Source: Escherichia phage FL31. Taken from it: 64,000 nt of DNA. The translations under genes were made by a program, and so were the position numbers. Where the stretch lies: sequence record PP400782. One strand, 5' to 3'. Shown here one piece after another: positions 3,766 to 45,365 of the stretch. The notes under the pieces were generated by a model, which had not been told where the DNA came from, did no database searches, and saw nothing but the letters and a program-made list of their open reading frames with translations. Every line of letters begins with the position of its first letter. The first letter of the stretch is position 1.

Positions 3766-4452
3766 TTAGAAGTCGTGAGTAGAATCGGCTTCCATCGCAA
3801 TAACATAACTTACTTGAGAGCTTTCAAACTTAGCTGCAACTTTATCACCAGCTCCCCACAACATTACTTTATAGTTACCTGGCTGGATTTTCATATTAGC
3901 CATATTGATTACGAAGTTAAAGTTATTAGAACCGTCATAATCAGTAAGAGTCAAAGAATACTTAGGACGAGTTAGTCCGGAATCTTCAACTTTATTATAG
4001 CCATTGATAACAATTTTACCATCTTTATTTGTAATAGCAATTGTATCAATCTGAAGTCCACGTGAAACTCGAAGCAATTGTTGAAGGTCTTCAGCTTTAA
4101 TTTCAGTAATCACAGAAGCCACTGGGAATTGAATTGGCTTATTAGGAAAAACAATGGTGCTCTTGTCGGCAGCAGGCCAATAAACTGTGGAACGTGTATC
4201 TGCAATTTTAATATTGCCATCAGTATGCATTGAAATTTCGGCATCATCAGACACTAGACTCAAAATGCTTAAGAAGCTATTCAAATCATAAAGTGCTACG
4301 TCAAAATCAATTTCATCAGAGATATTTGCTTCCGCATAAGTGGTGCCATTAACTGCACGAGTCATAATAAATTTACCTTGGCTCAGCAGAATGCCAGAGT
4401 TAATAGAAGCGAAGTTTTTCAGAATATTTACGGTTTCACGGCTAAGTTTCAT
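3766..4452 (-). CDS. 45: Sliding clamp gp45
   Basis: 228 aa; MKLSRETVNILKNFASINSGI...ADSTHDF matches recalled T4 gp45. Confidence 0.95.
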   Translation of the reverse strand: MKLSRETVNILKNFASINSGILLSQGKFIMTRAVNGTTYAEANISDEIDFDVALYDLNSFLSILSLVSDDAEISMHTDGNIKIADTRSTVYWPAADKSTIVFPNKPIQFPVASVITEIKAEDLQQLLRVSRGLQIDTIAITNKDGKIVINGYNKVEDSGLTRPKYSLTLTDYDGSNNFNFVINMANMKIQPGNYKVMLWGAGDKVAAKFESSQVSYVIAMEADSTHDF

Positions 4453-5339
4453 TTAGGTTTCCTATTAGCATAATAATTTGTCCAAGACCGGATAGCACCT
4501 TGGTATGATTCATCATTAAAACCATGCTGAATTGCATGTTTTCTAAATGTAATATAACTTGGTTTTCCTAAAGCAATCCACAATTCCTTTAATTTTTGTT
4601 CATGAAATATCCATGTACCTCTAGCTTTAGATTTTCTGAATTTATCCTTAAATTCTTTGGTTGCATTTCTTTTCGAAGCTGCGATAGAGGCCTTTGCTCT
4701 ATTTTCAGGTTTAGACCAATACAATGTTTTAGATATTTTTATTTTATCTTTAACATTAGGAGAATTCATTATATCTTTAAATTTTAAAGCAAAATCTCTA
4801 TCGTTAAACATTTTTTTAGAACGAATAGAAACTTTCTCTCTTCGTTCTTTGGTCCAATATGTTTTTTGAAATTCTCTAATTGCGTTTAAATGATTCTCCG
4901 ACAATTTGCAATTTTTTCTAACACCGACGTAATCTTCGTTTATTTCGTTTTTAGAAAGTTTTACTATTTTGCCTGTTTTTAAATTTTTATACGGTGCATA
5001 TCCTTTAGCTGATATTCTAGACTTCTCGTTAGCATAAGCCTTATTAAAATATTTTTCATTTGAAACGGCTTTAACATTGAGTTGGAATAGTCTTTCTATT
5101 CTTCTAGGGTCTAATGTGGTTTCGCCTAAAATTTTTACAGAATATTCGCCTTGGTCTATTAATCTGTTATATAAAGGAGAATACGAGGAATTAACACTAC
5201 CGGTATATATTTTACCGGTAGAATCTTCAATAATATCCTTTCCATTAAAATGACACGAAACTTTAGAACCTATATAATAACACGGGTATTCATTTTTAAT
5301 CTCACGATTATAAAAGGTTATAAGATATATTAAATTCAT
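4449..5339 (-). CDS. Putative free-standing GIY-YIG-type homing endonuclease (seg-like) with lysine-rich NUMOD-like C-terminal region
   Basis: N-terminus NLIYLITFYN...YYIGSKVS resembles the GIY...YIG module (spacing longer than canonical); C-terminal SKPENRAKASIAASKRNATKEF repeats; AT-rich relative to flanking genes; ATG at 5339 (track start 5348 is TTG). Confidence 0.45.
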   Translation of the reverse strand: MNLIYLITFYNREIKNEYPCYYIGSKVSCHFNGKDIIEDSTGKIYTGSVNSSYSPLYNRLIDQGEYSVKILGETTLDPRRIERLFQLNVKAVSNEKYFNKAYANEKSRISAKGYAPYKNLKTGKIVKLSKNEINEDYVGVRKNCKLSENHLNAIREFQKTYWTKERREKVSIRSKKMFNDRDFALKFKDIMNSPNVKDKIKISKTLYWSKPENRAKASIAASKRNATKEFKDKFRKSKARGTWIFHEQKLKELWIALGKPSYITFRKHAIQHGFNDESYQGAIRSWTNYYANRKPK

Positions 5340-5344
5340 AATTA

Positions 5345-23326: not shown

Positions 23327-23347
23327 TTTGTTTTCTCCTCTTGTTTT

Positions 23348-23385
23348 GATAGGTCTATAATAACATATCCTAAAAGCGTGTACAC
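23348..23385 (-). promoter_or_regulatory. PeSL-like early promoter cassette
   Basis: Minus strand GTACAC...TATTAT-AGACCTATCAAAAC. Confidence 0.5.
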
Positions 23386-25444: not shown

Positions 25445-25739
25445 TTAAAGTTTCAACAAAATTCACCAAATCATTCTGACGAGCATCAACTTGTTTTTCA
25501 TAAAAGTCTCCACAGTCATTTACTGCATGATAAGCTACATCATTTAAATCTGAATCAGCTTCACGTAAGTCATGGATAAGGTCCATCAATTTATTAGCTT
25601 GTTCGCGTGTCATTTTACCATACTCGCTTCAATAAGATTCACTATGCCGTTTACCATGTTATAAGTAAACATCGGATAATTGTATTGTACTACAACATAA
25701 GCGATAAGCAAAAGTTTCATTTTGTTCTCCGTTCGTTTT

Positions 25740-25778
25740 GGTAGGACTACTATAACATAATCCTACCAAGATGTAAAC
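25740..25778 (-). promoter_or_regulatory. PeSL-like early promoter cassette
   Basis: ggtaggactactataacataatcctacc followed by gtaaac (minus-strand GTTTAC -35); GGTAGGA/TCCTACC arms. Confidence 0.5.
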
Positions 25779-36493: not shown

Positions 36494-36512
36494 AATATTC
36501 TCCTCATGTTTT

Positions 36513-36552
36513 GGTAGGACTACTATAACATAGTCCTATAATTGTGTAAACA
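36513..36552 (-). promoter_or_regulatory. PeSL-like early promoter cassette
   Basis: ggtaggactactataacatagtcctata + gtaaaca; TAGGACTA/TAGTCCTA arms around the -10. Confidence 0.55.
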
Positions 36553-37800: not shown

Positions 37801-37807
37801 TTAATTT

Positions 37808-37846
37808 GATAGGACTACTATAACATAGCCCTATCTTGTTGTAAAC
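37808..37846 (-). promoter_or_regulatory. PeSL-like early promoter cassette
   Basis: gataggactactataacatagccctatc + gtaaac. Confidence 0.55.
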
Positions 37847-41345: not shown

Positions 41346-41972
41346 TTACTTACGAGTTTTTGCATACTGAGCAGCGTCAGCAGCCAAACGACCTGCCTGA
41401 CGAAGTTTTTCTTTAATCGCATCGTGAAGTGGTTGAGTGTACTTCAAACCTTCGATAGTCAAATAAAGACGATAAAGGTCCGGGGTATCAAGGTTGTTGA
41501 TATGTTGGCCATTACGAAGAATATTGAATTCACGAACGAGTGAAGATGTATCGGATTCAATATCACGAACAAGCGAAGATAGTTGTTTATATTTTTTTTC
41601 CAGACTAGAAGTATCAAACTTAAGAGCAGGAGCTTTAGGAGTTGCTTTTACTTCAGGCTTAGGCTCAGGTTTTGCTATTGCTTTAGGGGTCGCAGGTTTA
41701 GGAATGGAAGGAGTAGGTTTTACTTTAGGCGAACCCGATTTAGCAGAAACACCACCACTAACAATATCTTTGAATGCTTTAGAAGCTCTGTAATATTCTT
41801 TTTGGCTGGAAGTGTCGATACCGTACATGGCTTGAACGTTTTTGAAAAACTCTGTACTAGTTTTTGTACCAGAAATAGCATCGTAAGCAGCTTGCCATTT
41901 CTCTTTTGTCATACGTACACCGGCTTCGGTGATTACTTCCGTTTCGGCTAAAAATTCATTAAAAGTATACAT
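41346..41972 (-). CDS. Internal-protein-like protein with CTS and Pro/Lys-rich linker
   Basis: ATG at 41972 gives MYTFNEFLAETEV...; SPKVKPTPSIPKPATPKAIAKPEPKPEVKATPKAPA low-complexity segment. Confidence 0.55.
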   Translation of the reverse strand: MYTFNEFLAETEVITEAGVRMTKEKWQAAYDAISGTKTSTEFFKNVQAMYGIDTSSQKEYYRASKAFKDIVSGGVSAKSGSPKVKPTPSIPKPATPKAIAKPEPKPEVKATPKAPALKFDTSSLEKKYKQLSSLVRDIESDTSSLVREFNILRNGQHINNLDTPDLYRLYLTIEGLKYTQPLHDAIKEKLRQAGRLAADAAQYAKTRK

Positions 41973-42710: not shown

Positions 42711-42787
<77 letters not shown>

Positions 42788-42887: not shown

Positions 42888-42962
42888 TGGTGGCCCTGGC
42901 TGGTTTCGATCCAGCTACCTATCAGTTATGAGCTGACAGCTCTCCCATTGAGCTACAGGGCC
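42888..42962 (-). tRNA. tRNA with CAT anticodon (Met, or Ile if lysidine-modified as in T4 tRNA-Ile)
   Basis: Acceptor GGCCCTG/CAGGGCC, D stem GCTC/GAGC, anticodon loop CTCATAA, T stem GCTGG/CCAGC, encoded CCA. Confidence 0.7.
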
Positions 42963-43708: not shown

Positions 43709-43915
43709 TTACTCACCTTTTGCAATTTTATCCATAACAATAGCGATTAAACCGATTAGAAATGCTACTACCAATGAGATAGAATTTTCTGTTGTTGTCA
43801 GTAGTCCACAAATGAATCCTACAAACATCGAAAAACTAAAAGCCATTGAAGCAATTACTACAGCAACATTACGAATCAGTTCAGCGCGTTTCATTTTATT
43901 TCTCCATTTACTCAT
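43709..43915 (-). CDS. Small membrane protein
   Basis: One TM helix; better RBS at internal Met (ATG 43894). Confidence 0.45.
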   Translation of the reverse strand: MSKWRNKMKRAELIRNVAVVIASMAFSFSMFVGFICGLLTTTENSISLVVAFLIGLIAIVMDKIAKGE

Positions 43916-43922
43916 TTGTTTT

Positions 43923-43961
43923 GATAGGACTACTATAACATATCCCTATAGGCTTGTATAC
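43923..43961 (-). promoter_or_regulatory. PeSL-like early promoter cassette
   Basis: gataggactactataacatatccctata...gtatac. Confidence 0.5.
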
Positions 43962-43963
43962 CT

Positions 43964-44228
43964 TTATTTCAAATATATTGCGTATTTTTTATAGCCACCA
44001 GGCTCGTGTCGAAGACCTTTATCATTCGCAAAACGTTGAATGTTATTGAACTGGTTTTCATCAAGTTCGGATGTGTTAAATATAAAAAAAGTTTCGTTTG
44101 TTACCAAGCGTGATATGCGGAGTTAAGTCAATGTTATACAAATTAAGAATATCAGCAATAACCTGATTAACCGCTTTGTTAATTTTCACGCCAGACGATT
44201 CTGAGATGAATTCGTTGAAAGTTTTCAT
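43964..44228 (-). pseudogene. Internal-protein-like gene interrupted by a frameshift at a 7-nt homopolymer (or a short 50-aa CTS protein)
   Basis: ATG at 44228 gives MKTFNEFISESSGVKINKAVNQV... and stops after 50 codons just past the A7 run at 44084-44090; removing one base restores an ~87-aa reading frame ending at 43964. Confidence 0.45.
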
Positions 44229-44251
44229 TTTAGGTTCCATTTGGTTGTTTT

Positions 44252-44290
44252 GATAGGACTACTATAACATAGTCCTATCATGTTGTAAAT
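44252..44290 (-). promoter_or_regulatory. PeSL-like early promoter cassette with perfect 10-bp inverted repeat
   Basis: gataggacta-ctataaca-tagtcctatc + gtaaat; minus strand ATTTACA-N17-TATAGT. Confidence 0.6.
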
Positions 44291-44601
44291 TATTTTATGC
44301 CTTTAGAAGAAATGGTATTTTGGCGTTTGGCCCCTGTTTGTGAAAAATCGTGGTTATCGATTTGGTCAACTCTCATAACACCAAATGCGGATTTAATTTT
44401 GGCTTTTGAACCTTTTTTGATACTAATTATCATATAAGTATCATTTTTCTTATATTCGAAATTTGTTACTTCAACGCCTTGATTAGAAATTGACTTAATA
44501 ATAGCATTAGCGTATTCATCATCTAATGGACCGGTAGTGTTAATAATAAAATTTTTATCTGGTTTAGTAGCTTCAGCGATAAACTCTTGATAAGTTTTCA
44601 T
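44290..44601 (-). CDS. Internal protein I-like (CTS-bearing), adjacent to 57B
   Basis: ATG at 44601 gives MKTYQEFIAEATKPDKNF..., 103 aa; position corresponds to T4 ipI. Confidence 0.6.
   Translation of the reverse strand: MKTYQEFIAEATKPDKNFIINTTGPLDDEYANAIIKSISNQGVEVTNFEYKKNDTYMIISIKKGSKAKIKSAFGVMRVDQIDNHDFSQTGAKRQNTISSKGIK

Positions 44602-44679: not shown

Positions 44680-45365
<686 letters not shown>

Follow-up and report, generated by a model that had tools for sequence, protein, structure and literature searches.

The internal head proteins IPI to IPIII of phage T4 carry a capsid targeting sequence (CTS) that directs them into the prohead core, and the prohead protease gp21 cuts at the motif L/I-X-E (PMC9026906; PMC3012670). 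T4 mutants in these internal proteins (IPs) grow on standard strains (PMC9026906). One of them, IPI/IPI* (PF11634), is injected and inhibits GmrSD, a type IV restriction enzyme. Another family, Ip9, was named in phage RB15, and a homologue bears the name ip9 in the GenBank records of VR7, VR20 and VR26. Searching the literature for Ip9 turned up nothing outside unrelated fields, and no virion data for Ip9 were found. Two further described systems are relevant to the locus considered here. T4-type phages contain gene cassettes bracketed by PeSLs (Arbiol et al. 2010; Comeau et al. 2014), promoter-hairpin elements for which the T4/PST-type consensus is TTTACW, N17, TAYWAT with a stem of the form AGNA-loop-TCNT (PMC4122927). 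Frameshift alleles at poly(T) runs can be 'leaky' (Koscielniak et al. 2018; Baranov et al. 2005).

We analyzed a 64-kb stretch of the genome of Escherichia phage FL31, referred to below as the window, to which the coordinates given here refer. FL31 came from pig faeces, was taken through three plaque pickings, and was grown on E. coli K-12 MG1655; its genome was sequenced on the Illumina MiSeq platform (2x250) and assembled de novo with CLC (PMC12032242). The phage is an RB69-like Mosigvirus, about 97% identical to the nearest genomes of the phage collection. The gp9, gp10, gp12 and fibritin proteins encoded in the window agree exactly with the FL31 entries XAO15534, XAO15535, XAO15537 and XAO15538, and the look-ups found its gp12 and fibritin sequences in no other entry. 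Its internal-protein region includes an Ip9-family gene that is broken at a run of seven T. This is a known gene in a frameshifted allele, a matter of ordinary biology or, less likely, of an assembly slip, and it involves no new mechanism.

The internal-protein slot and its PeSL elements

Gene order at the locus, all on the minus strand for the features placed here, is gene 1 (dNMP kinase), 57A, 57B, an Ip7-like gene, the Ip9-like gene, Y07D, Y07C, Y07B, tRNA-Met(cat) and tRNA-Arg(tct). Within the hypervariable ipI region the Ip9-like gene thus forms the second cassette for an internal head protein, lying between 57B and the Y07D/tRNA region. The first cassette (44290-44601) is intact and encodes a 103-aa Ip7-like protein beginning MKTYQEFIAE. 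The slot has conserved boundaries on both sides: 57B upstream (44680-45135) and Y07D, a 61-aa member of the T4 Y07D family, downstream (43709-43894). 57B is Acb1, of the anti-CBASS phosphodiesterase family, with a full-length match to PF23474 (E 7e-59), so that two kinds of anti-defence genes adjoin at this position. Just downstream of the locus are tRNA-Arg(tct) (42711-42787) and a tRNA with a CAT anticodon (42888-42962), which is annotated in relatives as either Met or Ile2.

The content of the slot between 57B and Y07D varies among other phage contigs from no cassette to one or two. Arrangements found elsewhere include IPI alone; IPI with a 102-aa protein; a 90-aa Ip9 with a 102-aa protein; a 108-aa protein with a 99-aa IPI; the FL31 arrangement of a 103-aa Ip7 with an 87-aa Ip9-like protein; and a 103-aa Ip7 with a different 87-aa protein. 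In one 98-kb contig (ENA ERZ15184976, 2415-2505) the slot between Acb1 and Y07D is empty and exactly one PeSL is left, which is the outcome expected of recombination between flanking PeSLs.

Each internal-protein cassette is headed by a PeSL-type element, with an early promoter lying within a strong hairpin. The element upstream of the Ip9-like gene (44245-44289, minus strand) consists of TTTACA (44289-44284), N17 and TATAGT (44266-44261), embedded in a 12-bp hairpin at about 44251-44280 (dG -17.5 kcal/mol, z -7.2). The downstream element (43916-43960, minus strand), which heads the next gene, reads TATACA, N17, TATAGT and has a weaker hairpin; the 27-mers of the two copies are identical. As in the PeSL cassettes described for T4-type phages, the FL31 gene is therefore bracketed by near-identical promoter-hairpin elements, the hairpin is likewise of the AGNA-loop-TCNT type, and the slot holds zero, one or two genes. 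The one departure from the T4/PST consensus TAYWAT is in the -10 hexamer, where TATAGT is off by a single base.

The 27-mer core of the element, TATGTTATAGTAGTCCTATCAAAACAA, occurs six times in the window when up to 3 mismatches are allowed, against none expected by chance. All copies are on the minus strand (23341-23367, 25733-25759, 36506-36532, 37801-37827, 43916-43942 and 44245-44271), scattered over the early and hyperplastic regions, and two of the six flank the Ip9-like gene. In phage TH58 the upstream PeSL (about 150-215) has the stem GGATGAT... / ...ATCATCC in place of the GATAGGACTA / TAGTCCTATC of FL31; in an alignment read by eye, the TH58 hairpin still surrounds the -10 hexamer despite its differing stem. 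This suggests that the pairing within PeSLs may be conserved rather than their sequence. The PeSLs account for the shuffling of genes at this locus but not for the frameshift.

An Ip9-family gene split across two frames

Direct translation from the minus-strand ATG at 44228-44226 gives MKTFNEFISESSGVKINKAVNQVIADILNLYNIDLTPHITLGNKRNFFYI and then a premature TAA at 44078-44076. This 5' fragment (44076-44228, minus strand) is 50 codons long, and its stop lies two codons past a homopolymer of seven T (T7, 44084-44090; A7 on the plus strand). Beyond the run the +1 frame (43964-44083, minus strand) continues as ...FFIFNTSELDENQFNNIQRFANDKGLRHEPGGYKKYAIYLK and terminates at the TAA at 43966-43964. 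Removal of one T from the run yields a single 87-aa protein, in which the junction tryptic peptide is NFFIFNTSELDENQFNNIQR. The original prediction, which had described the reading frame from 44228, the run, the stop two codons on and the continuation to 43964, is reproduced here in every coordinate. It had also attributed the absence of the gene from the ORF track to each piece being under 60 codons, and the lengths that we find, 50-54 codons for the 5' piece and 47 for the 3' piece, agree. The split-gene signal is far beyond chance.

The GenBank record for FL31 annotates a single gene product here, a 54-aa version of the 5' piece starting at the ATG at 44240 (XAO15519.1, hypothetical protein). 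This truncated ORF occurs once among 15 billion proteins, the one occurrence being XAO15519.1 itself. Separate translation of the 3' piece from a TTG at 44107 was considered and rejected; no Shine-Dalgarno (SD) sequence accompanies this codon, which is an internal TTG.

The earlier suggestion that this is an internal-protein-like gene, broken at a homopolymer and restored by a one-base deletion, is borne out by comparison of the repaired product with known proteins. The 87-aa protein matches the full length of PHROG 7673, 'internal head protein' (profile 1-90 of 90, E 1.9e-48), and is identical, residue for residue, to the internal head protein of Av-05. It had no family match in a Pfam search. 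In a collection of 5.8 billion proteins it was found in 17 clusters only, all from T4-type phages, which include Ip9 of RB15 (Q38376) and the Ip9 or internal head proteins of RB33, Moon, KM16 and ESCO47; matches in the large databases have 66-98% identity and 100% coverage. By sequence, then, the FL31 gene is a member of the Ip9 family. The repaired product is 98-100% identical to the 87-aa Ip9 subgroup of Mosigvirus and Carettavirus, and it aligns over its full length with the 90-aa Ip9 group at 66-72% identity, being 3 residues shorter after the CTS. With the Ip9 proteins of T-even phages (RB15 Q38376; VR7, VR20 and VR26) it has in common both a CTS-type N-terminus and its locus, but the FL31 copy is interrupted by the +1 T frameshift. 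Members of the family have an uninterrupted ORF of 87-91 codons. The FL31 copy consists instead of a 50-codon piece and a remainder in the +1 frame, which makes it a frameshifted allele, or pseudogene, of the Ip9 family.

The first ten residues, MKTFNEFISE (44199-44228, minus strand), form a putative capsid targeting sequence that resembles the propeptides of the T4 internal proteins, such as IPII/IPIII. Residues 8-10 (I-S-E) fit the L/I-X-E rule of the gp21 prohead protease, with cleavage predicted after E10. The alternative cassettes found in this slot elsewhere begin MKT[FY]xEFIxE, and the start of the adjacent Ip7-like protein is of the same form. T4 IPI occupies the same slot, between 57B and Y07D; IPI and Ip9 are alternative cassettes in relatives, with a common N-terminal targeting and cleavage logic (PMC3012670; PMC9026906), and both are dispensable on laboratory strains. 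In contrast to IPI, however, the Ip9-like protein gave no match to PF11634 in the Pfam search, and no IPI* structure was among the fold matches listed for an Ip9 model.

The model, predicted by AlphaFold, has a pLDDT of 83.9 and places the break at the turn between beta1 and beta2. Fold searches with it returned generic alpha/beta matches only. A domain of a 535-aa viral protein (BFVD UPI0018AFBB59) superposes on the model with a TM score of 0.75 (query), 28% identity and E 2.7e-7. Judging from this superposition, the Ip9 fold may also occur fused within a much larger viral protein.

Origin of the seventh T

The frameshift was compared with the same site in related phages. Across the site, all 26 close GenBank relatives have 120 nt where FL31 has 121, so the early stop of FL31 is not shared by orthologs; the comparison on which the original prediction had made its reading depend thus comes out in favor of that reading. 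Fifteen copies were read directly, contigs from ENA, Logan and IMG/VR among them, and all are intact and of full length. In PHB12, F27, mogra and phiE142 the site is AAC-TTT-TTC-ATA/GTA (T5C), within an intact and annotated ORF of 264 nt. In TH58 it is AAC-TTT-TTT-ATA, a run of six T (T6) with the frame intact. T5C is the most common state, and T6 and T7 are found in one genome each among more than 26.

Searches of wider collections returned no second T7 allele. A scan of IMG/VR for T7 was negative, as was a scan of JGI metagenomes for T6 to T8; a degenerate IMG/VR scan from T5N to T8 matched only phiE142 and Av-05, both T5C. A scan of GTDB genomes gave two 24-mer matches in MAG contigs, which on inspection lay in unrelated DNA and were chance matches. 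Exact look-ups found the 54-aa fragment, the Ip7 allele and the Y07C allele on no other contig, and look-ups of Acb1 and Y07D retrieved other phages only and no second FL31 assembly.

Since most relatives carry T5C and TH58 carries T6, the simplest path would be a synonymous C-to-T change from T5C to T6, followed by the gain of one T. After the run, FL31 differs from Av-05 by 3 nucleotides, all of them synonymous in the restored frame. With no decay in this half of the gene, the lesion is either very recent or not real.

The second of these possibilities, that the phage truly carries T6 and an intact gene as in TH58 and that the consensus gained one T during sequencing or assembly, has several points in its favor. 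The lesion lies exactly in a homopolymer, the classic site of indel miscalls; the repaired protein matches a known one at 100% identity and shows no other decay; and the lesion went unflagged by the FL31 annotators. A mutation acquired while the phage was being isolated on K-12 would, however, leave the gene just as free of decay. The T7 allele has been seen in no second, independent assembly, which fits a private recent mutation and an artefact equally. The data are moreover Illumina MiSeq 2x250 reads. On Illumina, consensus indel errors at 7-nt runs are expected to be rare.

As an internal control, the rest of the window was surveyed for frameshifts against phage G2469. In the divergent baseplate and fibre region the raw list of indels carried too much noise, and the comparison was made instead at the level of ORFs, by tblastn of those of at least 70 aa common to FL31 and G2469. 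Of the roughly 140 shared ORFs, none but the Ip9-like gene is divided between two frames. Over the first 47.5 kb, where the alignment is good, every isolated 1-nt indel that was placed on the gene table of G2469 lies in an intergenic position. Homopolymers of at least 7 nt number five in 64 kb, and the other four (7-8 nt, one of them T8) are inside unbroken ORFs, which further argues against a miscall.

The longest of these runs, a plus-strand T8 at 41592-41599, is slippage-prone and lies in frame within an unbroken 208-aa ORF (41346-41972, minus strand). A segment at 4427-5341 has no megablast match to G2469 and contains a 296-aa ORF (4449-5339, minus strand) with a T7 run; it looks like an insertion beside the sliding-clamp gene. 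The clamp gene of G2469 is annotated as two CDSs, and an additional homing endonuclease is mentioned in the paper on FL31 (PMC12032242).

Taken with the Illumina data, the one broken gene in 64 kb and the existence of a natural T6 precursor allele favor mutation over error. We consider an artefact unlikely, and conclude that T7 is probably a real frameshift caused by replication slippage, an ordinary and recent loss-of-function mutation. We infer, that is, that the extra T is present in the phage and not only in its assembly. A frameshift that arose during, or hitch-hiked through, the three plaque bottlenecks on K-12 would not have been removed, because the internal-protein class is dispensable on laboratory strains and an empty slot occurs naturally.

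Possible slippage at the run and the predicted fate of the product

The original prediction had left three options for the broken gene: a sequencing error, an inactivating mutation, or slippage giving two products. The mutation is the one favored above. The third would make T7 a designed site of +1 ribosomal frameshifting or transcriptional slippage, from which both a 50-aa and an 87-aa product are made. The sequence UUU-UUU-U does permit perfect +1 re-pairing of tRNA-Phe, T7 is at the threshold where the RNA polymerase of E. coli starts slipping, and the short product would keep the capsid targeting sequence. However, neither the run nor a two-ORF layout is found in any of the 26 close relatives or in any more distant Ip9 gene read, and most of these genes have a C interrupting the run. 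Reading of the upstream 30 nt revealed no SD-like motif, and in the 0 frame the A site is occupied by UAU, an ordinary codon. Predicted folding of the RNA on either side does not exceed that of shuffled sequence (z +0.46 and +0.33). In most bacteria, slippage sites that work efficiently measure about 9 nt (PMC1088944). Slippage as a designed two-product route is therefore unsupported, the slippery run not being conserved and stimulatory elements being absent, and we regard programmed recoding as extremely improbable.

A small amount of unprogrammed rescue is a separate matter, and is compatible with a mutated gene. T4-type phages transcribe with the host RNA polymerase. For the E. coli enzyme no slippage is seen below T7, and rescue is about 5% at T7 and 10% at T8, both figures being those of a GFP reporter in which deletion-type slippage at T7 was not quantified apart (PMC6260861). 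As in the 'leaky' poly(T) alleles, the FL31 run is a sense-strand T7 read by host polymerase, and deletion of 1 nt in the RNA would restore the frame. Because T7 is the shortest run showing any rescue, only a small effect is expected in FL31: slippage would return a small fraction of transcripts to frame, leaving the allele slightly leaky. Since the polymerase only begins to slip at 7 T, the yield of full-length Ip9 made in this way might reach a few percent at most.

The existence of both a T6 allele (TH58) and a T7 allele (FL31) raises a further question, whether the run is a contingency (phase-variable) locus at which T6 and T7 act as a reversible ON/OFF switch and the population hedges on its injected Ip9 cargo. 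The gene lies within a fast-evolving host-interaction locus, and a run of 6-7 nt is expected to be more mutable than T5C. Were it so, T6/T7 toggling together with the trickle from polymerase slippage at T7 would constitute a bet-hedging device for an injected anti-defence protein. Yet each of the two alleles is known from one genome of more than 26, and the common T5C state breaks the run. Runs of at least 7 nt are rare, at five in 64 kb, suggesting avoidance rather than use, and the genomes compared give no sign of recurrent switching. We therefore consider such a switch very unlikely.

For an ordinary loss-of-function mutation, the following sequence of events is proposed. The intact gene would produce an 87-aa precursor whose first 10 residues, by analogy with T4 IPI to IPIII, would target it to the scaffold core of the prohead. 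The gp21 protease would then remove the propeptide after I-S-E, leaving a 77-aa domain (alpha-beta-beta-alpha-beta-beta) to be packaged with the DNA and injected, presumably countering host defence. Packaging, cleavage and injection of Ip9 are deduced here from the CTS, by analogy with the T4 proteins, and its anti-defence role is likewise putative. In the FL31 lineage an ancestral T5C would have become T6 by the synonymous C-to-T change, a state that survives in TH58; replication slippage would have extended T6 to T7, after which translation would end after 50 codons. On E. coli K-12, where FL31 was isolated and grown, the lesion would be tolerated, since this host does not call for internal proteins.

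According to the structural model, the targeting peptide, alpha1 and beta1 would remain in the 50-aa product, and beta2, alpha2, beta3 and beta4, the elements encoded by the +1-frame remainder, would be missing from it. In the family alignment the most conserved half of the protein is the C-terminal one that is lost in FL31, with the invariant pattern F.FD.SELD.NQ.NNI.RFANDKGLRHE..GYKKYAIYLK. The truncated product may still be targeted to proheads. Because it lacks the conserved half, it should neither fold nor function.

These observations bear first on the annotation of FL31. The 'hypothetical protein' XAO15519.1 is the front half of a frameshifted Ip9 gene, and the record needs either a pseudogene mark or a correction. 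More broadly, the locus offers a small, clean example of the way in which T4-type phages can lose accessory genes for anti-host cargo during isolation on a defence-poor laboratory host. Such losses of cargo genes are relevant when the host ranges of isolates are compared, as for FL31 on the ECOR strains.
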